The notes: generated from the sequence alone by a model not told the origin. A stretch of 32,000 bases of DNA from Candidatus Brocadiaceae bacterium (GCA_039794405.1 JBDIVL010000003.1:96843-128842), one strand, 5' to 3'. Positions 5,037 to 32,000 are shown, numbered from the stretch's first letter. Translations and numbers: made by a program.

Positions 5037-5134
5037 CGGGGCGCAGGAGCAAAAAAAAATGAAAAAATTTCGGTTCTGTTTATCATCATTAACAAACACT
5101 TTTCATCGGTCTGAAGTACTGCTACTTTCGTGGC

Positions 5135-5378: not shown

Positions 5379-5439
5379 GTGAGACGATGTTATGTCTGGT
5401 GATTGTCTCATTATTGGTATTTCCAGTCAAGCCTCATGA

Positions 5440-5921
5440 AGCCCAAAAAGTATTTTCGGTGGTGATAGTACAAAAGGTGATGGCAACAATTTGTTTAAAT
5501 TTCAAATTGGGGCCGGATCGAATATCTCAAGTGATTTGTTGAAGTTTGATCTGTTGAATGATTCAAATGTTTCATTGGGTACCAATAATACTGAATTTAG
5601 TATATAAAACTAAATTTGACGGCTAGTGCTACAAATGTTACTTCAATAGGCGGAATAAACGTATTGGGGAGTTTTGCTGCCGCAGGTTTTACAAACGCCC
5701 TTGACGGAACCGTAACCATTTGTTTTTTTGCTGATGTATCGAAAGCATTAAATTATATAGGTGTAACAATCAGCAGGTTAACCTATCAGGAAAATAGCCT
5801 TATGGTAAGCAAGGCGAGCATCGGATCCACACGGAGCCGGATTGAAGATGTACATATGGCAGAAGAACAACTTGTTGATGCAAAACTTCAGATACTGCAA
5901 CAGACCGCCGCAATAACGTAG
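5440..5921 (+). pseudogene. Flagellin remnant (central and C-terminal parts only, two frames)
   Basis: Frame 1 reads SIFGGDSTKGDGNNLFKFQIGAGSNISS... (flagellin FQIGA motif) and stops at 5605. Frame 3 from 5616 reads ...SRLTYQENSL...STRSRIEDVHMAEEQLVDAKLQILQQTAAIT, a flagellin C-terminal D1/D0 pattern. The N-terminal D0/D1 and the last ~15 aa are absent. Confidence 0.6.
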
Positions 5922-5929
5922 TGCGGCGG
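5905..5929. terminator. GC-rich hairpin CCGCCGCA-ataacgtag-TGCGGCGG between the convergent flagellin relic and ferredoxin gene
   Basis: 8-bp perfect GC-rich stem. The T-tails are poor on both strands, so function as a terminator is uncertain. Confidence 0.35.
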
Positions 5930-6048
5930 TATTCTCAAAACGAGTGATTGCTAAGCTTGAAAAGCCTCTCACATAGCAATATTCAGATGTTTCTTCTTTT
6001 AAAATCTCCTTATCTTCCGTTAAATTATCAACAAACAACAACCTTGGC

Positions 6049-6246
6049 CTATGTTTTGTATTTTATATACTGTGTAGGGCAGAGATATGCTGCCTGCTTG
6101 ATGCCTTCAGTAAAAGAAGCGATATTAGCACCTTGTTTAACCTGCGGACCTACGCCTGCTACAAATTCAAAAGCCCCTGATGCCTCTTCAATGCACATCG
6201 TACATTTAACACAATCACCTTCAAACCAAACAGTTTCTATCCTCAT
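6049..6246 (-). CDS. Small single-cluster ferredoxin
   Basis: MRIETVWFEGDCVKCTMCIEEASGAFEF...AAYLCPTQYIKYK has a CxxCxxC...CP cluster motif in about 65 aa. ATG 6246 with GAGGAGG upstream is preferred over the TTG at 6276. Confidence 0.7.
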   Translation of the reverse strand: MRIETVWFEGDCVKCTMCIEEASGAFEFVAGVGPQVKQGANIASFTEGIKQAAYLCPTQYIKYKT

Positions 6247-6279
6247 AATAATCAATTTCCTCCTCAATAAATTCAAAAA

Positions 6280-6326
6280 GTGAATAGTTAATAGAGGATA
6301 AAATACCCCCCCTACTAACTATTCAC
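6280..6326 (-). terminator. Intercistronic hairpin with T-tail between the protoglobin and ferredoxin genes (possible attenuator)
   Basis: On the minus strand GTGAATAGTTA ... TAACTATTCAC forms an 11-bp stem. The 25-nt loop contains a G7 run, and the stem is followed by TTTTTGAATTTATT and then the ferredoxin SD. Confidence 0.4.
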
Positions 6327-6347
6327 TAACTTATTCACTGTCTACCA

Positions 6348-7004
6348 TTACATCCAGGGAGCAAAATAATCAATGTGATAAACATCGATAATTAACCAGA
6401 AAAGTTTTGTCCATGCAGAGGTAATTCTCTGCAACTTTTCTGGCTCGTTCCTTAAAGTTTCGGCCAGAAAGTTAAATAAATACTGGTGGATGTAGCCCCA
6501 GAGCGCAATGTTTAGCCTTACTGGTATATACAGATCTTCAAAACCGAAGATCGGTACATGTACGGCGCCAACCCAGCGAACAAAATTCCAAAACTCTTCG
6601 TCCCATTTACATTCCAGGATCTTCAGGATAAACCTCCGCTGCCTCGCCCTCCGAATAGTGACATACTCTTTAGAAATCTTCCCAGTTTCATCCCTAAACC
6701 ATTTTGACAGCCAGGGGTCGTTGATAAGCTTTTCCCAATAAATATGATCAAGGATTGCCTCCAATTTCGGCGCTAAAATCTCTTTTGATTCCCTGATTGC
6801 TTCTGTGTCTTTATCTGTGAAGTTTACACATTGGGACATATACTCATAACGCTTCATAATATCGAGACTGGTATCCCGATAAAGATTCCATGATTTATTA
6901 AATTCGGGGATATCCAGAACAGAATTACGTTTACCAGCAGGAACCTTCTTCTCTGCTTCCATCGGAAACATCTTCATATAAGCATTCGCCATAACTGAAC
7001 TCAT
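6348..7004 (-). CDS. Single-domain protoglobin (globin-coupled-sensor-type globin without an output domain)
   Basis: It aligns by eye along its length with Methanosarcina protoglobin as I remember it: F-T-x-D-x-E-I...EILD..Y...P.L...F....G....KY....R.R...IL...D...IG..H. The putative proximal His sits in WVGAVHV. SD GGAG lies upstream. Confidence 0.8.
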   Translation of the reverse strand: MSSVMANAYMKMFPMEAEKKVPAGKRNSVLDIPEFNKSWNLYRDTSLDIMKRYEYMSQCVNFTDKDTEAIRESKEILAPKLEAILDHIYWEKLINDPWLSKWFRDETGKISKEYVTIRRARQRRFILKILECKWDEEFWNFVRWVGAVHVPIFGFEDLYIPVRLNIALWGYIHQYLFNFLAETLRNEPEKLQRITSAWTKLFWLIIDVYHIDYFAPWM

Positions 7005-7118
7005 CTACCATTTCTCCTCGTGAAAAAGTTGAAAATCCTGTACACTGCCATTTTGCTATTAATGTTTACCTTGCAAGGTTAGGAACGGCTTTATAACAGC
7101 CAAACCGCTTGTCATATA

Positions 7119-7134
7119 AACAACTAACGTACCA
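7119..7134 (-). promoter_or_regulatory. Candidate sigma54 (-24/-12) promoter for the protoglobin-ferredoxin operon
   Basis: The minus strand reads TGGTAC-GTTAG-TTGTT, the same as the 4880-4895 element outside the N5 spacer. It lies about 115 nt upstream of the start codon. Confidence 0.45.
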
Positions 7135-7247
7135 GAGACAGTCTCAACAATGTGCTGTTGGATGTAAGTACTTACAACAATGAAGTTTAAAAAATAAATT
7201 TGTTTTTCTTGCAGAAGAAACAGGACGAGGAGAAAAGGATTTTAAAA

Positions 7248-7274
7248 TGTTTTTCTGGAAAATTTTGCGGAAAA
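7248..7274. promoter_or_regulatory. Candidate enhancer (UAS) box TGTTTTTC-TGG-AAAATTTTGC-GG-AAAA
   Basis: Second copy of the 27-nt box at 5010-5036. It lies 114 nt beyond the -24 edge of 7119-7134 and 40 nt after the EBP stop codon. A partial TGTTTTTC half-site occurs at 7201-7208. Confidence 0.4.
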
Positions 7275-7314
7275 TATAGATGTGTTATGTAAAAGTGGTC
7301 GAAAATATTTCGTT

Positions 7315-8661
7315 TTAACCCCACTCCTTTACTTTATATTCAATTTTTCTGGTGGATATCCCTAACATTTTTGCAGCATCGCTTTTACTGCCGTGGGTCA
7401 TTTGAAGCGTTTTCAAAATAATCTCTTTTTCAGCTTCTTTTAATGAAGTTCCCATAGGAATCTTTATTGCCGGTATATCTCCTTTATATTGGACAATATT
7501 TCCCGGCAGGTGTTCTTCGGTAATCATAGTGCCTTTACAAAGCACAATTGCCCTTTCAATAATATTCTCCAGTTCCCTCACATTGCCTTGCCAGTGGTAG
7601 GTGCAAAGGGCTTCCATCGTCTGGGGAGTAAACCCATGAATTTCCTTCTTATATTTCTTTGCATATTTCACGACAAAAAAATGAGAAAGGACGGGGATAT
7701 CCTCCTTCCTTTCCCTTAACGGTGGTAAATGGATAGTAATAACATTTAATCGATAAAATAAATCTTCCCGAAATCTTCCTTCTGCAACTTCTTTCTCAAG
7801 GTTTCGGTTGGTTGCTGCAATCAGCCGGACATCTACTTTTATGGTCTTTTCCCCGCCAACACGTTCGAACTCACCTTTCTCCAAAATCCGGAGCAGTTTG
7901 ACCTGCACCTTGAGGCTCATCTCACCCACTTCATCCAAAAAAATGGTACCGCCATCGGCTAATTCGAACCGTCCTTTTCGTGATTGAATTGCACCGGTAA
8001 AGGCACCCTTTTCATGGCCAAAGAGTTCACTCTCCAGCACACCTTCTGATAAGGCAGCGCAATGTAAAGCGATAAAAGGCATGCATGCCCTGTCACTTCG
8101 ATAATGGAGTGCGTTAGCAACCAGCTCTTTTCCAGTTCCTGTTTCCCCCAGGATTAAGATTGAAGCCGTACTGGGGGCTACATCCTCTATCATTTTAAAT
8201 ATACCATGCATCTGTGGGGTACCACCGACAAGTTCTGAAAATTTATACTTATCCTTCAGTTTCTCCTTGAGTAATTGGTTTTGAACCACCAACTGTTGTT
8301 TTTCCCACAATTTTTCCAGCACCAGCTCTAATTCTTCAATATCCACCGGTTTCGTTAAGTAATCATCCGCTCCGCATTTAATGGCATCCACGGCTGTTTT
8401 AATGGAACTGTAGGCCGTAATCAATACAATCGCTAAAGAGCCATCCTTTTTTTTCGCTTCATGGATCAGGTTTAATCCCCCCATCCCCGGCAATTTCATA
8501 TCTGTTATGATGATGTCAAATTTCTTCTTAGATAAGAGATTCAATGCTTCATAACCAGAGGGGACGCCGGAAACGGCATATCCATCACTTGCCAGTATTT
8601 TTACTAATCCATCAAGTGCATTTTTATCGTCGTCAACGAGTAATAATCTTGGTTTCGTCAT
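7315..8661 (-). CDS. Sigma54-dependent response regulator (NtrC-family enhancer-binding protein: REC + AAA+ + HTH)
   Basis: It has a REC domain, Walker A GETGTGKE, the sigma54-contact loop EKGAFTGA, a Walker B/arginine-finger region and a C-terminal Fis-type HTH (AAKMLGISTRKIEYKVKEWG). Confidence 0.95.
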   Translation of the reverse strand: MTKPRLLLVDDDKNALDGLVKILASDGYAVSGVPSGYEALNLLSKKKFDIIITDMKLPGMGGLNLIHEAKKKDGSLAIVLITAYSSIKTAVDAIKCGADDYLTKPVDIEELELVLEKLWEKQQLVVQNQLLKEKLKDKYKFSELVGGTPQMHGIFKMIEDVAPSTASILILGETGTGKELVANALHYRSDRACMPFIALHCAALSEGVLESELFGHEKGAFTGAIQSRKGRFELADGGTIFLDEVGEMSLKVQVKLLRILEKGEFERVGGEKTIKVDVRLIAATNRNLEKEVAEGRFREDLFYRLNVITIHLPPLRERKEDIPVLSHFFVVKYAKKYKKEIHGFTPQTMEALCTYHWQGNVRELENIIERAIVLCKGTMITEEHLPGNIVQYKGDIPAIKIPMGTSLKEAEKEIILKTLQMTHGSKSDAAKMLGISTRKIEYKVKEWG

Positions 8662-8722
8662 CTTGTTTTAAATTGGACCTTTCGGCAACTTTCCGTGCTG
8701 ATATACCTATGATAATTTATGT

Positions 8723-8788
8723 AGGATGGGTGAATCGTTATCGCACCCATCAGAAAAAATTGTTGATGGGCTTTGCTTGACCCATCCT
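8723..8788. repeat. Four alternating GATGGG / CCCATC segments (tandem REP-like hairpins with alternative pairings)
   Basis: GATGGGTG 8725-8732 pairs with CACCCATC 8744-8751, and GATGGG 8765-8770 pairs with CCCATC 8781-8786. The outer AGGATGGG/CCCATCCT can also pair. On the minus strand the first hairpin is followed by AACAATTTTTTCT. Confidence 0.5.
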
Positions 8789-8885
8789 GTTCTTTGAGAT
8801 GTCCATAAATGAACTTATCACTACCGGCAAACTTATATTTTGGGATTGTCTAAAAAGGTACAAAATCGATTTTTTTCATACAACA

Positions 8886-8932
8886 TGTAGGGCGTATTGT
8901 AATACGTTCCTGCAAATTTGGACAACCCCGTG
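8886..8932. repeat. Degenerate REP palindrome (TGTAGGGCGTATTGTAATACGTTCCTGCA) fused to a TTTGGACAACCCC arm
   Basis: The left arm and loop match the 3727-3756 element. The right arm CGTTCCTGCA is shared with the 23908-23939 copy. The 3' part matches the arm at 185-201. Confidence 0.45.
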
Positions 8933-9085
8933 CTACCCTTTTAGCGTTAAAATCCTCAATATATCCTGAACCGAAATATTGTTCGGTTTCATCCTTTGGA
9001 TACTATAAGTGGCTAATTAATCAACCATCCAATTAAACTTGCATCCTGCTTTTCATCCGTTTTGAGGTTTTTGCCTTGCTGGTTA

Positions 9086-10180
9086 TTAGCGTACCGGTAT
9101 TGCAACAACAAATTTAGTTCCCTGGGATGATGGTTCCAGCCTTATTGTGCCTCCATGGGCATGGATAATATTTTGAGCAAAGGAAAGTCCTATTCCGGTA
9201 CCTCCATCCTTGGTGGTATAAAACAAATTGAATATCTTATCTTTAATCTCATCTGGAATTCCTATCCCTGTATCCTGGCAGGAGATGAATATTTCATACT
9301 CGTTCCGTTCCGTACGAACATATAACTTCCCCCCATCCGGCATTGCCTCAATACCGTTAATAAAAATATTTAAAATTGCTTGCTTTATCTTATCCTTGTC
9401 TACGCTTATTTTGGGTAGTTCACACGCCGTGTCTAATTCTACCTGAATACCATGTAATTGTGCCTGAGGTATGATCAATGAGACAACTTCCTTGAGTATT
9501 TCCCTTACATCAATACGGCTTTTGTTAAGTTCTCCTGTCCTGGAAAAGTGCAGACATTCTCCGACAAATTCACTTAAACGGTTAAGTTCTTTACGGACTA
9601 TGAATGCGATCTCAAGTAATCCTTCTTTTGATTTATCGCTTATTTTGTATATTTTCTGTATTTCACGCTCTAACACTAGCATCTGGAGGTTCATGGCATT
9701 CAATGGATTTTTAATCTCATGTGCCAGTTCGGCGGCAAATGAACCCAACGTAGATAAGGTTTTAGACCTAAGGACTTCGTCTGAAAATCTTTTTCTTTCC
9801 GTTATATTCTCTAAAATAGAGATAATATGGGTTACCTTTCCTTCTGTGTCTTTGATAGCCGACACACTTGCTTCTACCCACAATACACTTCCATCACCCC
9901 GTTTAATCAGGAGTTCCCTCGAACCCTGAGAAAATTTTCCCTGAAATACGTCCATGCCAGGGCAAAATTTTTCCGTTAAACACATACCGGTAGAAGTATG
10001 GCATTGGAAGATCTCACCGCAGTCTTTACCGATAATCTTCTCTCTTGGCCATTTTGTAATCTCCTCACATGCCCGATTAAAAAACAGCACATTCCTGTTA
10101 CTATCCTGGATCATAATCCCTTTGCTTGCACAGTCCAGGGCCTGGTGAAACATTTGAATTATTGTATCAATATTTCTCAT
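9086..10180 (-). CDS. Cytoplasmic PAS-domain sensor histidine kinase (PAS + HisKA + HATPase_c)
   Basis: No TM segment is present. The PAS core carries four Cys (GKDCGEIFQCHTSTGMCLTEKFCPG). It has H-box AHEIKNPLNAM, N-box ILNIFINGIEAM, G1 DTGIGI and G2 GGTGIGL. I chose ATG 10180; the ORF track opens at TTG 10204. Confidence 0.9.
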   Translation of the reverse strand: MRNIDTIIQMFHQALDCASKGIMIQDSNRNVLFFNRACEEITKWPREKIIGKDCGEIFQCHTSTGMCLTEKFCPGMDVFQGKFSQGSRELLIKRGDGSVLWVEASVSAIKDTEGKVTHIISILENITERKRFSDEVLRSKTLSTLGSFAAELAHEIKNPLNAMNLQMLVLEREIQKIYKISDKSKEGLLEIAFIVRKELNRLSEFVGECLHFSRTGELNKSRIDVREILKEVVSLIIPQAQLHGIQVELDTACELPKISVDKDKIKQAILNIFINGIEAMPDGGKLYVRTERNEYEIFISCQDTGIGIPDEIKDKIFNLFYTTKDGGTGIGLSFAQNIIHAHGGTIRLEPSSQGTKFVVAIPVR

Positions 10181-10488
10181 GGTTGTTTTAGCTAAGATTA
10201 TCAAAATTTCAATAAAAGTAAATGCTTTTTATGATTTTACCAAAAGCAATTAATTTGATTTGCTGTTTTTGTCTTTCAATTTTGATTTTTACCTCCAATA
10301 CTATAACCAGTACGAGCCGGAAGAGCCGAAATCCGAGTTGTATGGGAAAAAAGTTTTTACTGTAAATGATATTCAGCCATTCAACCCACTATTTTTGCTA
10401 AAAATATCGAATTCTTTTGGAAAGATATTAGCGTGAAAGCAACTTCATTGCGGGGTTATTTATGGAACGGGATTAGCTAATAAAACGC

Positions 10489-22879: not shown

Positions 22880-23794
22880 ATGAGAAACTACGCGAAAGTA
22901 TTTGTGCCTGCTGTATGGGTTTTTGTTATAAGCGTAAGTACGGTATTTGCATCTTCTGGTGGTCCTCCTGATGGACGAACAGGCTCTCCTGTCGATAACA
23001 AAACATGTCGGGACGATTGTCACAGCACCTATGAACTTAATGAGGGAAATGCCAAATTTACGATTTCTGCACCAAATAGTTTTGTGCAAGGTCAAGTTGT
23101 AGATATAAACATCTCTTTTAGTGATTCCAGCACTGCTAAACACGGTTTTGAGCTTTCTGCCCTGGATGCAGGCAACAACCATGTAGGTACTTTTAGCAAT
23201 ATTGATGATACTACTCAGACTGCTGACGGAAATTATATAAAGCATACCTCTATTGGCAGCAGTCAGTCCGGAAATGCCAGTTGGAGTGTACAGTGGACGG
23301 CACCAACTTCTGAAGTACAGGTACCTGTAACCTTTTATGCTTCAGGGAATGAAGCAAATGGAGATAGTACTCCTCAAGGGGATTATATCTACACCACTAC
23401 TGCACAAATAGACAGTGCTGCAACACCAACGGTAACTGCTACTCCAGTAATTACACCAACAACAATCCCGGTATGTGAACCTGATTTTATTTCTATTCAG
23501 AAACGTTTGAAATTAACACTCGGTGAAAGTAAAACGATAATTGCTACAGTTACAGGATTAAATGATTGTAAATCAGAAGGGGTAACAGTCAATGCTGTAG
23601 TTAAAACCGGGAAAACACGCGTTACCGTTGATCCCGATATTGCCACAGCAGATGAAAACGGCCAGGTAACTTTCACTGTTACGGCAGGTCAAAAGAAAGG
23701 TAATGCAAAAATACTGTTTACTGTAGAGGATAGCGAAGGGCAAGTTTTTAAAACTTTTATCATCGTGAAGATACGAAAGGTGCTAAAGAAATAA
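22880..23794 (+). CDS. Secreted Reeler-like beta-sandwich protein with a C-terminal bacterial Ig-like domain
   Basis: Signal peptide, then GGPPDGRTGSPVDNKTCRDDCH, GFELSALD, WSVQWTAPT and VTFYASGNEANGDSTPQGDYIY. I remember this recurring signature as Reeler-like, but the family name is uncertain. A Thr/Pro linker and an Ig-like repeat follow. Confidence 0.7.
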   Translation: MRNYAKVFVPAVWVFVISVSTVFASSGGPPDGRTGSPVDNKTCRDDCHSTYELNEGNAKFTISAPNSFVQGQVVDINISFSDSSTAKHGFELSALDAGNNHVGTFSNIDDTTQTADGNYIKHTSIGSSQSGNASWSVQWTAPTSEVQVPVTFYASGNEANGDSTPQGDYIYTTTAQIDSAATPTVTATPVITPTTIPVCEPDFISIQKRLKLTLGESKTIIATVTGLNDCKSEGVTVNAVVKTGKTRVTVDPDIATADENGQVTFTVTAGQKKGNAKILFTVEDSEGQVFKTFIIVKIRKVLKK

Positions 23795-24010: not shown

Positions 24011-24150
24011 ATATAAAGCCAACGGATGTTAAACTAATAAAATTTATGAAAATATCTTTCTGAAATCTTTGTTAAAATTTGTTTTCTCGTGAAAAAAATC
24101 CTTCTGAAAATTCTATACATTTTTATTACTAAAGATAGGGATATTTGTTG

Positions 24151-25215
24151 ATGAAAAAAATTGCAATTACTCTTTTTTGCATACTTCTGGGTTTCTGTTC
24201 TTCCGTGCGTGCGGACACAATCACTTTGAGGAATATTAATAAGGATATTGATATTGAGGTTATGGGTGTTACCAGTGACCATGTAAATGTGGTAATAGAA
24301 AAAAAAGCCTTAAAATCTTTGAATATACAACTTGTAAACGATAAGAATTATCCCGATGCTATCTTTCTGGTTGGGACAGATGCGGCTATAGAATGTAAAA
24401 TCAAAGAAATTACAGAAGATGTCATAGCCATGCTTATTCCCACTTCCATGATTTCTTCCCTTCACATGACATTCTTCCCATCTGATGATAAAAATAAACA
24501 ATTGAAGATGGCTCCTGTATTCAATAGCTCAAGTCCCGCAGAAATTGGGAATAATCCAAAGACATCAGCGCATCTAGCTATGAAAGAAGAAAAAAAGGGT
24601 CAAATGCAAGAAGATTATCGATTCGGATCTGAAATACCTAAAGATATTATTGAGGATACAATAGTTGATGAGATAAGGACTTCTGGGGAGAAAGCAGATA
24701 TTGGTAAGGATTATCGACTAAAGCTCATAGGGAAGAAAACAAAGAATTTTCCCGGTGAAAAGGGTGATAGGATTGAGTTACAGGAAAGGCCTATAGGTAA
24801 TGAGTCTGTTGTAGAGGAAGAAGAACTGCTGGAGGATGAAGTCGATGAAGGGAATTTGGAGCAAGAAAAACCACTTATTCAAGACAGAAATTTAGGTGCT
24901 GTTGAAGGAAAAATATTCCATAGCGGGAAACCTTTGGCTGATTGTCAGGTGAGTTTGCAGAGATTGGAAAAAGGCGGGTTACTATCAAAGGGATATCGGC
25001 CGATTGAAGGTGCCACAGAATATGTGACTATTACGAATAAAGATGGGATATATCGCTTCGCGAATGTACCTCCAGGCTTGTATAAATTGTACTGGAGGTC
25101 TCATTCAGAAGAAACATGGGTAAGGCGATTTAAGATGGAACCGGATGTTATTGTTGAAGCAAATAAATTGACAAATCCTAAAGTTATTGAAACCTTAAAG
25201 AGAACATTAAATTAG
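24151..25215 (+). CDS. Secreted protein with an acidic linker and a C-terminal carboxypeptidase-regulatory-like (CarboxypepD_reg) domain
   Basis: Signal peptide MKKIAITLFCILLGFCSSVRA and a Glu-rich low-complexity middle. The C-terminus GAVEGKIFHSGKPLADCQVSL...TITNKDGIYRFANVPPGLYKLYW is typical of that beta-sandwich. Confidence 0.7.
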   Translation: MKKIAITLFCILLGFCSSVRADTITLRNINKDIDIEVMGVTSDHVNVVIEKKALKSLNIQLVNDKNYPDAIFLVGTDAAIECKIKEITEDVIAMLIPTSMISSLHMTFFPSDDKNKQLKMAPVFNSSSPAEIGNNPKTSAHLAMKEEKKGQMQEDYRFGSEIPKDIIEDTIVDEIRTSGEKADIGKDYRLKLIGKKTKNFPGEKGDRIELQERPIGNESVVEEEELLEDEVDEGNLEQEKPLIQDRNLGAVEGKIFHSGKPLADCQVSLQRLEKGGLLSKGYRPIEGATEYVTITNKDGIYRFANVPPGLYKLYWRSHSEETWVRRFKMEPDVIVEANKLTNPKVIETLKRTLN

Positions 25216-25554
25216 TCTCTCTGTTTATAAAAGTAGCAAGTGTTTCGTTTGAGAAAAATACATAACATGTTTGATTTAGTGTATATAAATAATTTTGTAA
25301 TATTAAATCTGAAATCATCTTTTCAATAATGAAATCTTTTGCAGGTTTGCTAAAGTTTAGCGGTTACTTTGCTTGTTGAGACGTATGAAAAAATAAAAAC
25401 TTGTAAAGCAAGGATTTATGTATTTTTTTTTGTTTTTTTGCTTTTTTACTAAGTTAAGGAATAAATATTGTTAAACTATGAAACCTATAAATAAGGATCA
25501 CGGTAGTAGATTTTTAAATTGGCTTTAATTTTCTTCTTATGACCGAATTTATAA

Positions 25555-25583
25555 TTGACAAATTCATAAAATATATGTAATAC
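25555..25583 (+). promoter_or_regulatory. Sigma70 promoter candidate TTGACA-N17-TAATAC heading the respiratory cluster
   Basis: Consensus -35, a 17-nt spacer and a 4/6 -10. It lies at the end of a 440-bp very AT-rich intergenic region, about 90 nt before the cupredoxin start. Confidence 0.5.
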
Positions 25584-25672
25584 TAATTATCTTGGGTTTT
25601 TCGTTTTGAACATGATTCTTATGCACATGAGTAAAATTTATAGTAACTTAGAAGATGCAGATGGAGGTAAAG

Positions 25673-26431
25673 ATGGTAAAAAGTTTGCGATTTGTTGCAA
25701 TTGCCGGTAGTCTAGCATTTGGTGTGGTGGGTGGTTTGTGCAGTATAAACAATGTTATAATGGCAAAAGATAAGGCGCCGGCCTATCAGGAAGTTGAGGT
25801 AAAAGATGGTGGGACGATTGTTGGTACCGTTAAATTTGATGGTGATATACCTGCTGCAAAGGTGTTAAAGATTGATAAGGATGAACAGACATGCGGCCAT
25901 GATAATAGGCAGTCAGAGGAATTGGTAATTAACGGGGAGTCTAAAGGAATAAAGAATGCAGTCGTGTCTCTTGTTGATATTGCAGCCGGCAAGAAGGCTG
26001 ATACAACAACTGCTGTATTAGATCAAAAAGAATGTGTTTTTGCTCCTCATATACTCGCAGTTTCAGCTGGAACCAGCGTTGACCTTTTAAACAGTGATAA
26101 TATAATGCATAATCTCCATTCCTGGTCGATTAAGAACCCAGCATTTAATGAAGGTGTATCAGGTGGCGGAAAGCTTACAAAGAAATTTGATATTCCTGAG
26201 ATGGTCAAAATAACCTGTGACGTGCATAAATGGATGAGTTCTTTTGTTGTGGTAAAGCCGAATCCCTATTTTGCTGTAACAGATGAGAATGGGCGTTTTA
26301 AGATTGAGAATGTACCTGCGGGAACTTACAAGATTGAAGCCTGGCAGGAAAAGCTTGGGAAGAAGACTGGCGAAGTTACCGTTAAGTCAAAAGAAGAATC
26401 AGTAGTAGATTTTGCTTATGCGAAAAAATAA
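25673..26431 (+). CDS. Periplasmic type-1 (blue) copper protein with an amicyanin-like ligand loop, fused to a CarboxypepD_reg-like domain
   Basis: Signal peptide, FAPH, then CDVHKWM (C-x2-H-x2-M). The C-terminus reads DENGRFKIENVPAGTYKIEAW. ATG 25673 with GGAGG upstream is preferred over 25655. Confidence 0.8.
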   Translation: MVKSLRFVAIAGSLAFGVVGGLCSINNVIMAKDKAPAYQEVEVKDGGTIVGTVKFDGDIPAAKVLKIDKDEQTCGHDNRQSEELVINGESKGIKNAVVSLVDIAAGKKADTTTAVLDQKECVFAPHILAVSAGTSVDLLNSDNIMHNLHSWSIKNPAFNEGVSGGGKLTKKFDIPEMVKITCDVHKWMSSFVVVKPNPYFAVTDENGRFKIENVPAGTYKIEAWQEKLGKKTGEVTVKSKEESVVDFAYAKK

Positions 26432-26495
26432 CTGTGATTAATGATTATAGACTTATGGATTGTGTAATTTACTCGTTTGAAAAGGCGTATTGCTA

Positions 26496-28631
26496 ATGAA
26501 TAATTCGAAGATATTACTACGGTTTACAAAAAGAAGTGTTTTTGCCGCTTTGTTGTTGCTCCTGCTTCCGATTTTTTCGCTCCTCTCGTTTCAACAAATG
26601 ATAATTGCTGAAGATGCATCGGCCCAAACGGCACCTGGTGTCGAATTGCCACAATTCGAAGCTAGTCATTCGTCCGAGCAGCCAGAGGGGCAAGCAGCGC
26701 CAAATGCTGAAGCAGCAGTGGCAGCAGAGGAAGAAGAGGTTGGGCCCGTACAATACCGTTCATTTTTTGGACTGGATTCCCGTGTAGTCGTTTGGATCGT
26801 GTCTGAGCTGCATCTCATGTTTGCTGCATTTGTACTTGGAGTTCCTATTTTTGCTGTTATCGTTGAGATTGTGGGTTTTAAAGGTGGTGATGTTAAATAT
26901 GATAAGATGGCTAAAGAGTTTACGAAGCTCTTATCTGCCGCATTTGCTACGACGGCATCGTTAGGGGGACTTCTTGCATTCTGCTTATTCGGTTTGTACC
27001 CGGAATTTATGGGACACATGACGAATGTCTTTGCTCCAACGATGTATGTCTATGCATTGATGTTTTTTGGTGAGGCCTTTACTCTCTATGCTTATTATTA
27101 CTCTTGGGACATTCTTAAGGGAACATCTGCGAAGAAATGGTTTCATATCTCGCTTGGAGTTATGCTTAACCTCTTCGGTACTGGGCTAATGTTCTTAACG
27201 AATTCATGGGCTACTTACATGATGAGTCCTGCTGGAATTGTACCGACTACGGGTAAGGTTTTAAGTATGTATGAGGCTTTCTACAATCTTCTATGGATGC
27301 CAGTAAACATTCACCGATTGATTGCTAATGTGTGCTTTGGTGGGTTTGTGGTAGGTGCGTATGCTGCTGTGAAATTTTTAGGTGCCAAGACGGAGGAAGA
27401 GAGGGCGCATTATGACTGGATGGGTTATGTTGGAAATTTTATCGGCATCGGGGCATTGATTCCTCTCCCTTTTGCCGGATACTGGCTGGGTCGTGAAATA
27501 TACAGCGCTAGTCCTGTAATGGGTAATATTATGATGGGTGGTGCGTTTTCGTGGACATTTATTATTCAGGCCATCTTGATTGGTATGTTGTTTATTGGCG
27601 CTAATTATTACTTATGGCTTGGAATGGGGAGGATTAAGGGTTCTGACCGTTACACGAAGTTTATTAAATATCTCGTCTTTATAATCTTTCTCAGTTTTGC
27701 AGTTTGGCTGACACCTCATAACTTGCCGCTCAGCGGTGAAGAAAGGGCGATGATTGGTGAGCAGTATCACCCATTCTCTAAATATTTCGGTGTGATGGCT
27801 GCGAAAAATGCAGTTGTTAATCTGATTATTCTTTCTACATTCTTTTCGTTCTTGTTGTATCGGCGCAGTAATAAAGGTGAGACTGTACCATTCTCTGAGC
27901 AGGGTAAGGCTGGAAAGATCGGCGTATTTTCAGCAGTAATTTTTTGCTTGTTGATGTTGGTATCTTATGCTATTTCTCTTAATTTTGTAGAGTTGGAGGC
28001 CAATGTAAAGGCGTTCGTGAAGCCGTTGGTACGTTCACTTTATATTCAATCATTTGCCATATGTCTGGCGGCCGTTTTAACATTCAAAAATAAGGGGAAG
28101 TTTGCTCAGATGATGTTGTTTGCGGTAACCGCTTGTATCGCTGTTCTTTATTTTTGGTATTACGGCTTTGAAGTTATGCAGAAGGCCAACCTCGTCTTGA
28201 GGTATTTGTCTGTAACGCAGGTTTCGATTGTGATGAGCTGTCTGATAATGAACGCCATCATAGATATTTTTATGTTCCGCAAGGCGAAACTTGTTGGAGG
28301 TATCGTTTGGGGAAAAATGCCGGTACGGTCCCAATATGCGTTGTTGCTGCTCTGTGTCGTTATCGTTATTCTCATGGGGTTAATGGGTTTTATCCGTTCC
28401 GGGCTTCGCATGGACTGGCATATTTATGGAGTCCTGCAGGATACCTCTCAATGGGCATATACTCCTACTTTGGCTTTTATGGGTAAAGTAGTTGGCTTAA
28501 TCGTTGCTCTTTTCTTAGGTTTGGTTGCCTTTGTGTTCTGGCTGGCAAATCTTGGGGAGAGAAAGGTGAAGGAAAAAGCGAATGCGTATGAATGTGAAAG
28601 TGTAGCAGCTAATTATGAGGACTCACACTAG
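26496..28631 (+). CDS. Cytochrome bd-like (CydA-like) polytopic membrane protein, extended, no CydB partner
   Basis: By eye, CydA landmarks are present: SELHLMFAAF (His19-like), FFGEAFTLY (Glu99-like) and PVNIHRLIANVCFGGFVVGAYAA (His186-like). There are many TM helices, an N-terminal signal/anchor plus acidic Ala/Glu linker, and only about 15 aa where the Q-loop should be. Confidence 0.8.
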   Translation: MNNSKILLRFTKRSVFAALLLLLLPIFSLLSFQQMIIAEDASAQTAPGVELPQFEASHSSEQPEGQAAPNAEAAVAAEEEEVGPVQYRSFFGLDSRVVVWIVSELHLMFAAFVLGVPIFAVIVEIVGFKGGDVKYDKMAKEFTKLLSAAFATTASLGGLLAFCLFGLYPEFMGHMTNVFAPTMYVYALMFFGEAFTLYAYYYSWDILKGTSAKKWFHISLGVMLNLFGTGLMFLTNSWATYMMSPAGIVPTTGKVLSMYEAFYNLLWMPVNIHRLIANVCFGGFVVGAYAAVKFLGAKTEEERAHYDWMGYVGNFIGIGALIPLPFAGYWLGREIYSASPVMGNIMMGGAFSWTFIIQAILIGMLFIGANYYLWLGMGRIKGSDRYTKFIKYLVFIIFLSFAVWLTPHNLPLSGEERAMIGEQYHPFSKYFGVMAAKNAVVNLIILSTFFSFLLYRRSNKGETVPFSEQGKAGKIGVFSAVIFCLLMLVSYAISLNFVELEANVKAFVKPLVRSLYIQSFAICLAAVLTFKNKGKFAQMMLFAVTACIAVLYFWYYGFEVMQKANLVLRYLSVTQVSIVMSCLIMNAIIDIFMFRKAKLVGGIVWGKMPVRSQYALLLLCVVIVILMGLMGFIRSGLRMDWHIYGVLQDTSQWAYTPTLAFMGKVVGLIVALFLGLVAFVFWLANLGERKVKEKANAYECESVAANYEDSH

Positions 28632-28645
28632 ATTTTGGGGATGGT

Positions 28646-28683
28646 CTGTGATAAAAGTTTTATTATAAAATTTTTAGTCACAG
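28646..28683 (+). other. AT-rich intercistronic stem-loop (about 17 bp with one bulge) just after the bd-like gene stop
   Basis: CTGTGATAAAAGTTTTA-tta-TAAAATTTTTAGTCACAG. There is no T-tail, so it may be an RNA stability or processing element rather than a terminator. Confidence 0.3.
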
Positions 28684-28741
28684 TTAAGGAGCTAAATTAG
28701 GTAAATCTTAAGATGGTATAATGAAGACATAGAGAGAACTT

Positions 28742-29692
28742 ATGAATAAAAGCATGTTAAAAATTACGGCTTTTGGAATTGCAGTTATTGGGTTTTATAT
28801 CTATATTACCGTGTATGTAGCTGGGCTTTCCGGTACCGGCGGGGGAGAATCCGCTGGCGGGGTGAGCCCTGAGGCTGGTGAAAAGATATTCTGGGGTGAT
28901 GGGCAGTGTGGTACTTGTCATAAAATCGGAACAAGCGGGAGCGCAACGAGAGGTCCTGACCAGGAAGGTTTGTCTTCGCGTGCAGAAGAACGCGCAAAAG
29001 AATTGGGGCTGGCTTCTGGTCTTGATTACCTTGTGGAATCTATTGTAGATCCAGAAAAATATATTGTCAAAGGTTATGATAAGATTATGCCACGGGTTTA
29101 TGATCCGCCGATTATGTTGTCACGGGAAAAAATCCTCGCAGTTATTGCCTATCTTCAGACGTTAGGTGGAGAGGCCGATTTGAATGCGGTTATGAAGTAC
29201 AAAGATAAAATTCCTGAAGCTTCTAAGAAAAAAGTAAAACCATGGGTACCACCTGTTGTAGTAGATGCAAAAGAGGGAGAGGGAGTGTTTTTCGATGAGA
29301 CGCGTCCGGTTACCTGTGGTAAATGTCATGTGGTTAATGGAAAGGGGAAGAAGGTTGGGCCGGAGTTAACGGGAATAGGCGCTATTCAAACTCCGGAGTA
29401 TTTTGTCGAGTCGATTCTTACACCGAGTGCTAAGATAGTAAAAGGTTATGAGACGATGTATGTTATTACAACGGACGGTATACCTTATAACGGCCTGATA
29501 AAAAGTGAGACTGATGAAGAAATAGTCTTACTGAAAGAAGAGAGTGGAGAGATTGAAGAGGTTGTGATTCCAAAGAGTGATATTGAAGAAATGAAAAAGC
29601 AAGAGGTTTCGATTATGCCGGGTAATATCGGTGAGTTATTAAGTGTAAAGGATTTCTACGGTATTGTATCGTTTTTACAAAGTTTAAAATAG
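28742..29692 (+). CDS. Membrane-anchored dihaem c-type cytochrome
   Basis: N-terminal TM helix plus two CxxCH sites (CGTCH, CGKCH). The second domain resembles the planctomycete-type haem-binding domain (GPELTGIG...ESIL.PS..I..GY...T.DG). Confidence 0.85.
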   Translation: MNKSMLKITAFGIAVIGFYIYITVYVAGLSGTGGGESAGGVSPEAGEKIFWGDGQCGTCHKIGTSGSATRGPDQEGLSSRAEERAKELGLASGLDYLVESIVDPEKYIVKGYDKIMPRVYDPPIMLSREKILAVIAYLQTLGGEADLNAVMKYKDKIPEASKKKVKPWVPPVVVDAKEGEGVFFDETRPVTCGKCHVVNGKGKKVGPELTGIGAIQTPEYFVESILTPSAKIVKGYETMYVITTDGIPYNGLIKSETDEEIVLLKEESGEIEEVVIPKSDIEEMKKQEVSIMPGNIGELLSVKDFYGIVSFLQSLK

Positions 29693-29737
29693 GTTAAGTT
29701 GTCATAAGTGACTGAATCAATTGACAGGAGTTAATTA

Positions 29738-30508
29738 ATGGCTAATAAGCGCAGTACGTTTTTGATGATATGGGTGATTGCAGCTGTTATCTGTTTATAT
29801 TTATTCCTTAGATATGCATCGCCAAAAATTTTTCAGGTGCTCATGGCAAAAGGTCATCCTATGCCAACACCCAGTACTTTGATGATGTGGTACATGATTA
29901 TGGGGGTACTGGCTGGCCTGGTATATGCGACTACGAGTAACCAGAAATTTGGTGATTTTCTAGGGTTTTTATTACCGGGCAGTGCTTCTACTTCAAAATA
30001 TGTTCTTCAAAAATTACTATTTGTTTCGTTTCCAATCGTTGTTGGATGGTTTGTTTACACGTGGTCTATCCCCGGTGCAGCATCACCTGTGGAACTGCGG
30101 ATCCAACATCCTACCTTACCCCAAGAGTACGAAAAGCTTGAGAATCCTTTTCGACAGGCTGATGCTGTTACACAGCGTAGGTGTATTGAAGAAGGGAAGA
30201 TACTTTTTCAAACAAATTGCCGACCATGCCATGGCTCGAAGGCCGACGGTAATGGTCCTTTTGCAAACTCTTTCCGCCTAAGGCCTATTAATTTTCAGGA
30301 TCCTGGAACGATTGCTACGGTAGTGGATAACTATCTTTTTTGGCGTATAAAAGATGGGGCTCCTGGTCTTCCGTCAGAATCTACACCTTGGGACTCTGCT
30401 ATGCCTTCCTGGAAAAACGACTTAACTGATGATGAGATTTGGAAAATAATCATGGGTGAATATGATACTGCAGGTGTTATGCCAAGGCAGAGAGAAAAGG
30501 TCGAATAA
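29738..30508 (+). CDS. Membrane-bound monohaem c-type cytochrome (3 predicted TM helices plus a class I domain)
   Basis: Hydrophobic N-terminal half, then CRPCHGSKADGNGP...AMPSW. SD AGGAG lies 9 nt upstream. Confidence 0.8.
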   Translation: MANKRSTFLMIWVIAAVICLYLFLRYASPKIFQVLMAKGHPMPTPSTLMMWYMIMGVLAGLVYATTSNQKFGDFLGFLLPGSASTSKYVLQKLLFVSFPIVVGWFVYTWSIPGAASPVELRIQHPTLPQEYEKLENPFRQADAVTQRRCIEEGKILFQTNCRPCHGSKADGNGPFANSFRLRPINFQDPGTIATVVDNYLFWRIKDGAPGLPSESTPWDSAMPSWKNDLTDDEIWKIIMGEYDTAGVMPRQREKVE

Positions 30509-30563
30509 CATTATATTATTTTTGTGGTGAAAGACTTTCATCTAAATGATTTTGGAATTTATT

Positions 30564-32000
30564 ATGAACGGCAATGGAAAAAGAGCAAGAAAAATTATGA
30601 TAAAAGTGTTTAAAAAAGGATTTGTAAGATTTACGCTAGGCGGATTATTCTGTTTTGGTTTTTTTTGTTTCGGAACTGTAGAGGTATTTGCTCAATCATC
30701 ACACCTGTTTAGAACATACAAACATGAGGTGCCTCAGAAACTAGCTGAAACACCAGATGCCATCGCTGAAGGCCAGAAAGTTTATGAAAAAAGGTGTTGG
30801 TACTGTCATGGCATTGAAGGTAAAGGCGATGGTCCTGCAATGAAAACGATGTTTCCAAAGCCTCGAAATTTTACAAGAAATGAATATAAGGTTCGTTCTA
30901 CTGCTTCTGGGTCAGTTCCAACGGATGAGGATTTGTTCAGAATTATTACCAGCGGTATTGAAGGGACAGCGATGCCATTCTGGAGTACAATCAGTGAGAG
31001 GGAACGCTGGCAGGTTATCTATTATATCAAGACCTTTAATGACCAGTTTAAAAGAGATACAAATCCTAAGGTAGTGCCGGTTGGAAGTGTTGCCTCTACC
31101 CCTGAAAGTATCAAAAGAGGGGAAGAGTTATTTAAGGAAACAAAATGTTTTGAATGTCACGGTGAAGATGGAAGAGGCAATGGGCCACTAACTGTTGCAT
31201 TGCAAACTGAATGGAATATGCCATATCGTGCGCGGGATTTGTCTAAGGCGTGGAATTTTAAAGGTGGTAATACGATAGAAGATATTTACCGTACGATTTC
31301 AACCGGTTTTAATGAAACACCGATGGGCTCTTATTTAGAAAAACTTTCTGATGAGGATCGATGGCATGTCGCTCACTATGTAAAAAGCATTGCGAGAGAC
31401 ATGGCGTCGGATGTTGTTATAAAGGTAAAGCTGTTTGAGGTTGATCAATTGCCTGCAGACCCGCTTGATGAAGGCTGGAACAAAGCCTCTGCTATGGAAG
31501 TTCCGTTAGGAGGGCAAATTATTGCTAGTCCAAGACAATGGATTCCTTCTGTAGATGCTATTATGGTTAGAGCAGTATACAATAACGACGAAATTGCCTT
31601 TTTAATGGAGTGGGACGATTCTACCAACAAGCAGGAGGAAATTTTCCGGGATGCAGTCTCGTTGCAATTTCCTACAAAAATTCCTGAATCATTGAAAAAA
31701 CCTTATTTTGCGATGGGTGATTCGAGTGGGGCGGTGAATTTATGGAGCTGGAAGGCCTTCTGGAATGAGGGTTTTGGGACGGTTATTGAAGCTTCGGAAA
31801 CAGAAGCTGGGGAAGTTGTAGAGTTGAATGCAAAAGGTTTTAATAATATTAAGAACCAGCCACCTGAGAGTCAGAACGTGACCGGCAAGGGTGTCTATCA
31901 GAACGGACGATGGAAAGTTATGTTGAAAAGGACGTTGAAAACGGATGACACGAAGGGGGATATTCAGTTTGAAATCGGAAAGCTGATCCCTGTTGCTTTT
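30564..32000 (+). CDS. Dihaem cytochrome c fused to an ethylbenzene-dehydrogenase-gamma-like (EB_dh, haem b) domain; 3' end outside the window
   Basis: This frame is missing from the ORF track because no stop is reached; I translated it by hand. It has a signal peptide, CWYCHG and CFECHG with the GDGP/GNGP pattern, then ...AVYNNDEIAFLMEWDDST...DAVSLQFP...PYFAMGDSSGAVNLWSWKA, typical of the EB_dh family. The start could be 30546, 30564 or 30597. Confidence 0.85.
   Translation, partial: MNGNGKRARKIMIKVFKKGFVRFTLGGLFCFGFFCFGTVEVFAQSSHLFRTYKHEVPQKLAETPDAIAEGQKVYEKRCWYCHGIEGKGDGPAMKTMFPKPRNFTRNEYKVRSTASGSVPTDEDLFRIITSGIEGTAMPFWSTISERERWQVIYYIKTFNDQFKRDTNPKVVPVGSVASTPESIKRGEELFKETKCFECHGEDGRGNGPLTVALQTEWNMPYRARDLSKAWNFKGGNTIEDIYRTISTGFNETPMGSYLEKLSDEDRWHVAHYVKSIARDMASDVVIKVKLFEVDQLPADPLDEGWNKASAMEVPLGGQIIASPRQWIPSVDAIMVRAVYNNDEIAFLMEWDDSTNKQEEIFRDAVSLQFPTKIPESLKKPYFAMGDSSGAVNLWSWKAFWNEGFGTVIEASETEAGEVVELNAKGFNNIKNQPPESQNVTGKGVYQNGRWKVMLKRTLKTDDTKGDIQFEIGKLIPVAF

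Follow-up and report, generated by a model that had tools for sequence, protein, structure and literature searches.

A CydA-like gene in the nxr-associated electron-transfer cluster of an uncultured Brocadiaceae bacterium

Introduction

The closest described system is the nxr cluster of Kuenenia, which has been in the literature since 2006-2013 and in which kustd1713 to kustd1709 accompany the genes of nitrite oxidoreductase (NXR). The product of kustd1713 has been named a blue copper protein that is mostly soluble (PMC11897245), and it is abundant in the Kuenenia proteome (PMC6423088). The kustd1705-1712 products were recovered at 84-99.5% in the membrane fraction (PMC11897245). When nitrite was swapped for NO, the whole Kuenenia cluster was down-regulated, with kustd1709-1713 dropping 2.2- to 7.7-fold (PMC6423088). 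Kustd1711 has a crystal structure (PDB 7ZS0); it is strongly acidic and both of its haems lie at about +350 mV (PMC11791136). The kustd1709 product is known as the 'alternative NxrC', and in purified NXR-ABC a separate NxrC already holds the role of the haem b subunit.

The kustd1712-type membrane protein has also been placed in a published family, OR-N, within the cytochrome bd superfamily, with 14-TM OR-N1 and OR-N2 types (Murali, Gennis and Hemp 2021). In recent papers, the OR-N enzymes figure as putative O2 reductases that oxidise cytochrome c. Here we describe a related locus from an uncultured Brocadiaceae bacterium. To the published picture, our analysis adds a residue-by-residue check of the ligands for haem and copper, the recurrence of the gene block in more than 12 phyla, mostly with no nxr close by, and a radical SAM gene that often flanks the block outside Brocadiaceae.

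Results and Discussion

Gene organization and linkage to nxr

The window analysed is a stretch of 32,000 nt, and its last part carries five open reading frames on the plus strand, separated by gaps of 64 (58 if a TTG start is used for the second gene), 110, 45 and 55 nt. They are preceded by an AT-rich intergenic spacer of 439 bp on the same strand (25216-25654), with a GC content of 24.4% against 40.3% for the whole window. A promoter-like site, TTGACA-18-AATACT, lies inside this spacer on the plus strand at 25555-25584. The spacer contains no sigma-54 element and no Rfam match, and no terminator-like site was found in any gap between the five genes. The original prediction of five co-oriented genes behind one promoter holds for the orientation; the single promoter lacks statistical support, because the region has no more promoter-like matches than shuffled sequence would give (22 found versus 20.9 expected), and the site therefore marks a plausible location only.

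A metagenome contig (L087) overlaps the window at 99.98% identity and extends beyond it. The genes beyond the window encode two cytochromes c, a Usp protein, NxrC (EB_dh, 324 aa), NxrB (Fer4_11, 405 aa), a NarJ-like chaperone, a 317-aa protein and the start of NxrA, with nxrC, nxrB and the nxrA start on the same strand as the five genes. The first 33 residues of the last ORF match residues 1-33 of Kuenenia NXR-A (PDB 7B04, E = 2.8e-11). The nxr catalytic genes that had been anticipated past the window end are thus present. The gene order and haem counts match the published table of kustd1699-1713 (PMC6423088): Kuenenia has the same five genes in the same order, numbered in the opposite direction, followed by the same run of tetrahaem c, monohaem c, Usp, NxrC, NxrB, NarJ-like, hypothetical protein and NxrA. 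The next gene downstream of the five, which encodes the kustd1708-like tetrahaem protein, carries a CcoO/FixO-like domain (63.8 bits). One difference is that the place of NXR-T (kustd1705) in Kuenenia corresponds here to a 620-bp gap between the Usp gene and nxrC without a called gene, which agrees with the statement in the literature that NXR-T lies inside the nxr cluster in Kuenenia only.

Loci of Brocadia, Kuenenia and Scalindua share the five-gene order. For four window proteins, the nearest named relatives come from Brocadia, Jettenia, Kuenenia and Brocadiaceae, and judged by these relatives the host is placed among the anammox bacteria (Brocadiales). It is nearly certain that the five genes are accessory electron-transfer genes of an anammox nxr cluster and orthologues of kustd1713-kustd1709. 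The original prediction stated that bd-like proteins with cytochromes c and blue copper proteins accompany nxr genes in Kuenenia, Nitrospira and Nitrospina, in agreement with published reports (PMC3578206, PMC6606698). Its description of the system as largely uncharacterised fits the function of the membrane part, which papers of 2024-2025 likewise leave unresolved, but not the system as such, since kustd1709-1713 have been published.

Blue copper protein and cytochromes c

The first gene (25655-26431, plus strand, 258 aa) is predicted to encode a type-1 (blue) copper protein orthologous to kustd1713. Public contigs carry a 252-aa call, which corresponds to an alternative start at 25673. The protein has a signal peptide and a cupredoxin domain, followed by a C-terminal CarboxypepD_reg-like beta-sandwich (38.8 bits, Pfam) that had been missed in the first reading of the sequence. 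The Copper-bind score of 15.6 bits is below the Pfam cut-off of 21.2; the type-1 assignment is based on the ligand set and on the name given to kustd1713 in the literature. The copper ligands, His152 and Cys188-x2-His191-x2-Met194, are invariant in 63 of 63 homologues, and they line up with those of PDB 5FC9 and 9CCK, to which the protein shows weak matches.

All cytochrome c domain matches in the locus are above their cut-offs. The third gene (28742-29692, plus strand, 316 aa) encodes the kustd1711 orthologue, a dihaem cytochrome c with a beta-strand 'nose' domain. It matches PDB 7ZS0 across residues 1-316 (E = 7.8e-174), with near-identical length and ligands; its two CxxCH motifs are at 56 and 192, Met116 and Met292 are present, and its net charge is -11. 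The fourth gene (29738-30508, plus strand, 256 aa) encodes a membrane-anchored monohaem cytochrome c orthologous to kustd1710, with a Cytochrome_CBB3 match of 37.6 bits, one CxxCH at 161 and three hydrophobic segments read straight from the translation. This gene adjoins the bd-like gene in 70 of 80 loci.

The fifth gene (30564-32000, plus strand) encodes a fusion of a dihaem cytochrome c with an NxrC-like EB_dh domain, orthologous to kustd1709. The window stops at residue 478 of the alternative NxrC, which runs to 542 residues in loci L001 and L087; the visible part has two CxxCH motifs and the missing tail contains Lys493 and a C-terminal TM helix. The EB_dh profile (PF09459) scores 79 bits against a cut-off of 33.3, and TIGR03477 scores 81 bits, under its full-length cut-off of 169.85. 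The dihaem part matches the Kuenenia protein of PDB 6H5L_B (3e-53). The EB_dh part can be aligned to two haem b (gamma) subunits of the type II DMSO reductase kind, NXR-C (7B04_C) and EbdC of ethylbenzene dehydrogenase (2IVF_C), with which it shares the Met and Lys haem b ligands. Met384 (nt 31713-31715) pairs with Met155 of NXR-C and Met108 of EbdC, and Lys493, read from L087, pairs with Lys305 and Lys201, respectively. The haem b proposed for this domain is thus backed by equivalents of both NXR-C axial ligands. Outside the anammox proteins, the two ligands are poorly conserved (35/74 for Met and 9/74 for Lys). In contrast to NXR-C and EbdC, the alternative NxrC is extended by a dihaem c related to 6H5L_B at its N-terminus and by a TM anchor at its C-terminus; a genuine nxrC is present as a gene of its own further downstream.

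CydA-like membrane protein

The second gene (26496-28631, plus strand) encodes 711 aa from the ATG at 26496, the start used by public gene calls, or 713 aa from a TTG at 26490. Its product is assigned by homology to the OR-N family of the cytochrome bd superfamily, as the orthologue of kustd1712, and its best named relatives, 81-85% identical, belong to Brocadia, Kuenenia and a groundwater Planctomycetota MAG. The protein passes the cut-off of the Cyt_bd_oxida_I profile (PF01654) with 69.5 bits, but the match, at residues 97-343, is confined to the first 243 positions of a 418-position profile. Public annotations label these proteins 'cytochrome ubiquinol oxidase subunit I'. The claim that a CydA-like gene without cydB stands amid a copper protein and cytochromes c was borne out by the ORFs and domain searches; neither cydB nor a haem-copper oxidase gene was found in the window or about 10 kb downstream.

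TM1-5 are homologous to those of canonical CydAB (E. coli 6RKO/6RX4, Geobacillus 5DOQ). The residues corresponding to E. coli His19, His126, Glu107, His186 and Arg448 are H106, H217, E193, H273 and R638, which are conserved at 95%, 97%, 84%, 95% and 89%, respectively. H106 pairs with both His19 of E. coli and His21 of 5DOQ, and Arg448 belongs to a homologous C-terminal 'GRQPW'-type loop. In addition, E124 never varies, and on the way to the cytoplasmic side there is conservation at D136, E141 and K214. Unlike canonical CydA, the protein has no CydB partner, carries Tyr186 at the Glu99/Glu101 position (Tyr in 92%) and Ser635 in place of the haem ligand Glu445, and has about 250 extra residues. 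No alignment reaches the position of the second b558 ligand, Met393, and the conserved-residue analysis found no invariant Met in the middle region. No Q-loop is aligned either: the profile and PDB alignments break off around CydA residues 204-262, the next aligned stretch being the GRQPW-like loop, and absence of the Q-loop from this group of bd-like proteins has been stated before (PMC3578206). The genes around it code for cytochromes c and a copper protein, which makes these the likely electron partners in place of the quinol used by CydAB.

The AF2 model (pLDDT 82.8) has CydA chains as its best fold matches. It shows 16 long helices after the N-terminal helix, of which 300-321 and 324-347 may not span the membrane; this count, taken from the model, is compatible with the 14 TM of OR-N1/N2. 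The C-terminal half shows no CydB-like fold and no internal repeat. The Brocadiaceae proteins have, in the model, an extra N-terminal helix and an Ala/Glu/Gln-rich disordered linker of about 45 residues. With the OR-N proteins, including the 'bd-like oxidases' of Nitrospira and Nitrospina, our protein shares the CydA-like first helices with a His19 equivalent, the lack of a quinol-binding Q-loop and a long multi-helix body. It has no CxxCH haem c motif in its 711 aa, another trait of OR-N, which separates it from OR-C. The OR-N operons likewise contain alternative donors, namely cytochromes c and alternative NxrC. However, the anammox cluster has a single cydA-like gene, whereas the putative Nitrospira/Nitrospinota terminal oxidase is believed to combine OR-N1 and OR-N2.

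Functional comparison also brings in alternative complex III and cbb3 oxidase, in which a membrane module lies amid mono- and dihaem c subunits and which have in common with this cluster a proposed link between a periplasmic carrier and the membrane. The likeness to cbb3 extends to CcoP- and CcoO-like cytochrome c domains. Membership in either family was rejected, since neither ActB (Fe-S) nor ActC/ActF (NrfD-like) proteins are encoded in the window or the downstream genes, and no CcoN haem-copper subunit is encoded.

Distribution of the five-gene block

The order of the five genes recurs in 59-76 of 80 loci, distributed over more than 12 phyla that include Gemmatimonadota, Rhodothermales, Poribacteria and Acidobacteriota. 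Among these loci, only six have NxrB within 10 kb. Outside Brocadiaceae, a NirJ/AhbD-like radical SAM gene often flanks the block; there it is usually accompanied by a Usp protein and a radical SAM enzyme of the NirJ2/AhbD-like type, each with a PCP_red domain. This small domain is known from protochlorophyllide reductase.

Possible roles of the cluster

Our best explanation, which we put forward tentatively and at rather less than even confidence, is a chain from NXR through carriers to a membrane complex that ends in a terminal reductase. Soluble NXR-ABC would oxidise nitrite in the anammoxosome, with the electrons ending on the haem b of NXR-C. High-potential carriers may then pick them up, namely the blue copper protein and the acidic dihaem c, whose Kuenenia counterpart has its haems at about +350 mV. 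The next station would be a membrane complex in which the CydA-like OR-N protein is joined by the monohaem TM cytochrome c and by the alternative NxrC with its dihaem c, haem b and C-terminal anchor. Gene order and membrane fractionation suggest that the five products form one complex. In the last step that we prefer, the OR-N protein would keep the buried haem site of the bd type, draw protons from the cytoplasmic side and act as a charge-separating terminal reductase of O2, or possibly of NO or nitrite, fed by cytochrome c or cupredoxin and not by quinol; we infer which way the electrons run and what finally accepts them. The conserved CydA haem and proton residues, the lack of an aligned Q-loop, the occurrence of most blocks without NxrB nearby, the CcoO/FixO-like domain encoded downstream and the papers on OR-N as putative O2 reductases oxidising cytochrome c speak for the reductase step. 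Against it stand the changes of Glu99 to Tyr186 and Glu445 to Ser635, the unplaced Met393 and the absence of a CydB-like partner, and we know of no OR-N protein for which nitrite- or NO-reducing activity has been shown. In addition, anammox bacteria are anaerobic and express the cluster in anoxic reactors, so that an O2 reductase could be protective only in such a host. Finally, the older proposal for the same cluster is quinone coupling for reverse electron transport (PMC3578206).

Quinone coupling, published for this cluster by Lucker 2013 (PMC3578206) and Mundinger 2019 (PMC6606698), is in our view somewhat unlikely. It makes the membrane module a functional analogue of alternative complex III, which in anammox bacteria and nitrite oxidisers would run backwards, the proton motive force lifting nitrite electrons (+430 mV) into the menaquinone pool to replace those drained for CO2 fixation, and in aerobes would work in the forward direction, with quinol as donor and cytochrome c or cupredoxin as acceptor. 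Such a device explains the tight co-regulation with nxr in an anaerobe and fits the need to make up the electrons lost to carbon fixation; its forward mode also fits the wide spread of the block in aerobes, and the three extra TM helices in place of the Q-loop could form a new quinone site. However, the canonical quinol-binding residues are all absent and there are no known quinone-binding residues, a pure quinone reductase would not require the kept His19-type haem ligand and proton-path residues, and newer anammox papers send NXR electrons directly to nitrite reduction at similar potential, for which no uphill step is needed. We consider it improbable that the complex is a membrane dock and electron hub only, in which the alternative NxrC keeps part of the NXR at the anammoxosome membrane and electrons move sideways to c-type partners such as nitrite reductase and Rieske/cytochrome b complexes, the CydA-like protein taking no part in catalysis or quinone chemistry. 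The electrons of NXR-C must indeed exit to an external partner, soluble and membrane-bound forms of NXR are reported in a passage of a review that cites a complexome study, and the alternative NxrC here combines the Met/Lys ligands of NXR-C with a TM helix. But a protein of 14 or more TM helices with near-invariant haem ligands and polar intramembrane residues, found in more than 12 phyla, goes far beyond the needs of an anchor; most blocks have no nxr nearby, and the poor conservation of the EB_dh ligands outside anammox bacteria means that docking to an NxrB-like partner is not the common denominator of the family. An ordinary cytochrome bd quinol oxidase with cydB elsewhere in the genome, to which the public annotation and the Cyt_bd_oxida_I score would point, is hardly credible: the partial profile coverage, the replaced glutamates, the missing Q-loop, the extra length and the extra helices contradict it, no second cydA- or cydB-like gene stands beside the block in any anammox locus examined (L001-L014 and L087-L090), and the neighbours are always c-type cytochromes and the cupredoxin.

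A broader reading goes beyond the chain from NXR to an OR-N terminal reductase that we favour. The cupredoxin, the OR-N protein and the three cytochromes c would form an autonomous and very widespread respiratory module that is not an NXR accessory as such, its CydA-like subunit, with a specially modified haem, being a new charge-separating terminal reductase fed from the periplasm, which anammox bacteria recruited as an electron sink for NXR. We regard this as unlikely. If it were true, the CydA-like subunit would perhaps reduce nitrite or NO, by which energy would be conserved from nitrite disproportionation.

Gene organization and identity of the five-gene block

Five genes lie on the forward strand between 25655 and the window end. 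ORF 1 (25655-26431, 258 aa) encodes a blue copper protein; ORF 2, a CydA-like protein, extends to 28631 from either a TTG at 26490 (713 aa) or an ATG at 26496 (711 aa); ORF 3 (28742-29692, 316 aa) and ORF 4 (29738-30508, 256 aa) encode a dihaem and a monohaem cytochrome c; and ORF 5, which starts at 30564 and has 478 of its 542 residues inside the window, encodes a dihaem cytochrome c with an EB_dh domain. The intergenic gaps are, in order, 64, 110, 45 and 55 nt. CxxCH motifs number two in ORF 3, one in ORF 4 and two in ORF 5, and ORF 2 has none. The five co-oriented genes of the original prediction were confirmed. Public gene calls for the CydA-like protein start at the ATG; in an exact-protein look-up the 711-aa form was on record and the 713-aa form was absent. 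Several metagenome contigs encode the 711-aa protein without a single residue changed.

The block is preceded by a spacer of 439 bp with a GC content of 24.4%, compared with a window mean of 40.3%. The promoter-like site placed ahead of the genes by the original prediction is present at 25555-25584; however, such matches are no commoner than in shuffled sequence (22 in the scan versus 20.9), so the site marks merely a plausible place. No sigma-54 promoter was found 5' of the cluster, no meaningful repeat in the spacer, no terminator-like site within any gap between the five genes, and no match to Rfam families in the window.

The gene order coincides with the one that PMC6423088 gives for the Kuenenia stuttgartiensis nxr cluster, running from kustd1713 to kustd1700. 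In the table there kustd1712 is cydA-like, kustd1711 dihaem, kustd1710 monohaem and kustd1709 dihaem, while kustd1713 is a conserved hypothetical, named blue copper protein later. The genome belongs to an uncultured Brocadiaceae bacterium, and the closest named relatives of its CydA-like protein (Brocadia, Kuenenia and a groundwater MAG) are 81-85% identical. Lucker et al. 2013 (PMC3578206) described a gene set conserved between Kuenenia, Nitrospira and Nitrospina, comprising an alternative NxrC, mono- and dihaem cytochromes c, cupredoxins and a 'conspicuous cytochrome bd-like oxidase', which agrees with the statement in the original prediction that bd-like proteins accompany cytochromes, blue copper proteins and nxr in these organisms. 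The Nitrospira counterpart is within the 40 most transcribed genes (Mundinger et al. 2019, PMC6606698). The five genes correspond to kustd1709-1713, an already known portion of the anammox nxr cluster, and the window adds no new system, being one more orthologue of a cluster discussed for more than a decade and structurally solved in part. What is obtained here is a confirmed reading, a check of the cofactor ligands, and a block seen travelling through many phyla without nxr. Nitrite oxidoreductase (NXR) is the source of almost all nitrate on Earth. The five genes are leading candidates for carrying electrons from soluble NXR to the membrane, an important biological question that applies to anammox bacteria, Nitrospira and Nitrospina alike.

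Linkage to the nxr genes

One metagenome contig (L087) overlaps the window with 99.98% identity over 15.5 kb and runs past its end. Behind ORF 5 it encodes, in order, a 503-aa multihaem cytochrome c with a CcoO/FixO-like domain, a 190-aa cytochrome c, a 446-aa Usp protein with PCP_red, a 324-aa EB_dh protein, a 405-aa four-cluster ferredoxin-type protein, a NarJ-like chaperone and a 317-aa protein. The first 33 residues of the last ORF match residues 1-33 of Kuenenia NXR-A (PDB 7B04, E = 2.8e-11). The expectation that nxr genes follow the window was correct, as the EB_dh, ferredoxin-type and NarJ-like genes and the nxrA start show. Every contig carrying the cluster (L087 from 20671 onward, likewise L088 and L090) ends inside the first ~100 nt of nxrA, which suggests that short-read assemblies are broken there by a repeat or by a further copy of nxrA.

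The 503-aa protein (L087:12521-14032, ~1.8 kb past the window end) is kustd1708-like, and its CcoO/FixO-like domain (63.8 bits, cut-off 29.6) is followed by cytochrome c domains. In cbb3 oxidases CcoO/FixO is the subunit with a single haem; the genes nearby include none for a CcoN-like partner.

Copper protein and cytochromes c

The score of ORF 1 against Copper-bind was under threshold in the profile search, and its ligand set, His152 and Cys188-x2-His191-x2-Met194, is invariant in 63 of 63 homologues. Its C-terminus is a CarboxypepD_reg-like domain, which the original prediction did not mention. ORF 3 matches the crystal structure of Kustd1711 (7ZS0) over its full length (E = 7.8e-174) and retains the axial Met116 and Met292; a 2024 paper describes Kustd1711 as a strongly acidic dihaem cytochrome c of about +350 mV. 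The EB_dh domain of ORF 5 (79 bits) keeps both haem b ligands of NXR-C, Met384 in the window and Lys493 just past its end. Across the wider family these ligands are variable (Met in 35 of 74, Lys in 9 of 74). The conserved Gln368, which lies in 'LQFP' where NxrC has 'LMFP', was considered as a lost Met ligand and rejected, since the published numbering (Met155) and the alignment to 7B04_C identify the Met of 'MGD' as the true ligand, and this residue is present.

The CydA-like protein

ORF 2 matches Cyt_bd_oxida_I with 69.5 bits over only the first 243 of 418 profile positions. Residue equivalences were derived from alignments to solved CydA chains and from a 38-sequence family alignment. E. 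coli CydA His19, Glu107, His126 and His186 correspond to H106, E193, H217 and H273, which are kept in 95%, 84%, 97% and 95% of the family, and Arg448 of the C-terminal 'GRQPW'-like loop corresponds to R638 (89%). Glu99 is replaced by Tyr186 (92% Tyr in the family) and Glu445 by Ser635; the equivalent of Met393 could not be placed in the alignments. Other conserved positions of the family are E124, which is invariant, E416, H425 and H642. In the description of Lucker et al. 2013 (PMC3578206), the bd-like protein has 14 TM helices, conserved haem b ligands and three helices in place of the Q-loop. Murali et al. 2021 placed such proteins, which are widespread, in the OR-N family of the cytochrome bd superfamily.

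The AF2 model of the protein (pLDDT 82.8, pTM 0.81) has CydA chains as its closest PDB folds, with a target-normalised TM-score of ~0.5; to our knowledge, no OR-N structure has been solved to date. A fused equivalent of CydB or CydA', which would explain the missing CydB partner, was rejected: hhalign between the two halves of the family alignment, N-terminal versus C-terminal, gave nothing (probability <1%), and when residues 347-711 were modelled separately (AF2, pLDDT 70), no PDB entry scored below E = 0.5. Because both tests were negative, the CydB matches of the full-length model are best explained by the fold that CydA and CydB share in the N-terminal part.

Within residues 1-85 (26496-26750), the Brocadiaceae proteins carry an additional N-terminal hydrophobic helix and, behind it, a low-confidence linker of ~45 residues rich in Ala, Glu, Gln and Pro; homologues from other phyla align only from residue ~76-87. 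The extension could be a signal or anchor tied to anammoxosome targeting.

Distribution of the block

In a survey of one genome per species, at least 579 loci encode relatives, and the best 80, from more than 12 phyla, were analysed. Beside the CydA-like gene were found the Kustd1711-like dihaem c (76 of 80 loci), the Kustd1710-like monohaem c (70), the Kustd1709-like dihaem part (69), the EB_dh domain (59) and the cupredoxin (57), and the gene order is unchanged in almost all of these loci. Among the same 80, NxrB lies within 10 kb of the block in only six; NxrA was seen in two non-anammox loci. Gemmatimonadota are the commonest carriers among these 80 loci; others are Rhodothermales, Poribacteria, Acidobacteriota, Myxococcota, Methylomirabilota and KSB1. 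No description of a travelling five-gene unit was found in the main texts of the literature searched. Several loci (L019, L021, L026 and L030; Troglogloeales, Nitrospirota, Rhodospirillaceae and Myxococcota) have two complete copies in tandem, with a bd-like protein of ~620 aa in one and ~720 aa in the other. Each copy has a separate cytochrome set, an arrangement that favours parallel complexes over a heterodimer built from two CydA-like subunits.

In 44 of the 80 loci the block adjoins a gene for a radical SAM/SPASM protein that has PCP_red as its C-terminal domain, and this gene is mostly directly upstream (for example L077:14896-16224, L049:8611-10071, L018:8247-9875 and, on the reverse strand, L013:1100-2878). 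The top NCBIfam matches of the protein are NirJ2, with 352 bits, and AhbD, a haem b synthase, with 306 bits; both are below the cut-off of 500. A Brocadia orthologue (L091:10001-11905, ~53% identity to the Scalindua query) is unlinked to nxr, and a literature search found no paper pairing 'bd-like' with 'radical SAM'. The neighbour may point to a modified haem as a requirement of the OR-N protein, or may be a mere haem-synthesis gene beside a haem-rich operon. The small PCP_red domain, whose other known occurrence is in subunit B of protochlorophyllide reductase, is common to this neighbour and the kustd1706-like Usp protein, which has one to three copies of it (L087:14629-15969, ~3.9 kb past the window end; L077:18220-20271; L049:6635-8737). 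The Usp protein accompanies the block in 51 of the 80 loci across phyla, often in a longer form of 700-900 aa. This radical SAM and PCP_red neighbourhood is the most promising side lead.

Possible function of the block

In anammox bacteria, NXR is linked to soluble carriers of high potential, to a pair of membrane-anchored cytochromes c and to a polytopic protein that binds haem. In the NXR-ABC structure, electrons from the NXR-C haem b must exit via a positively charged groove to an outside partner (Chicano et al. 2021). As the last step, the CydA-like protein would be a bd-like terminal reductase that takes its electrons on the outer side from cytochrome c or cupredoxin. We favour this tentatively, because the conserved features are those of the haem site of bd enzymes and of the proton path to it, the quinone-site residues are absent, and the block is common in aerobes lacking nxr; papers of 2024 and 2025 also regard OR-N enzymes as putative cytochrome c-oxidising O2 reductases. 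However, anammox bacteria are anaerobes, two canonical bd residues are missing, and activity has never been measured for any OR-N protein.

A strong rival, at a somewhat lower probability, is the classical idea of quinone coupling or reverse electron transport, in which Lucker et al. 2013 (PMC3578206) proposed an ACIII-like role for the gene set. That the module serves simply as an anchor or electron hub has a low probability. A canonical bd oxidase is effectively excluded.

Other genes in the window

On the reverse strand, a run of sensing-type genes (2020-10204) encodes a 422-aa multicopper-oxidase-like protein, a receiver-only response regulator, a bacteriohemerythrin, a protoglobin, a sigma-54-dependent response regulator and a PAS histidine kinase. 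NirK was rejected as the identity of the 422-aa protein, which has no NirK match in NCBIfam; a multicopper oxidase is reported in the Nitrospina and Nitrospira clusters and is absent from the Kuenenia genome (Lucker et al. 2013, PMC3578206). Sigma-54-like TGGTAC-N5-TTGTT sites (4880-4895 and 7119-7134, reverse strand) lie 115-130 nt 5' of the hemerythrin and protoglobin starts, with the window total of such matches at chance level.

Directly 5' of the cluster are two secreted-protein genes on the forward strand (22880-23794 and 24145-25215), conserved upstream neighbours in the Brocadiaceae loci examined and absent from the other loci inspected. The first, of 304 aa, contains a choice-of-anchor V / Reeler domain, and its C-terminus is similar to the one in Kustd1514, the anammox S-layer protein; the second, of 356 aa, has a CarboxypepD_reg-like C-terminus.
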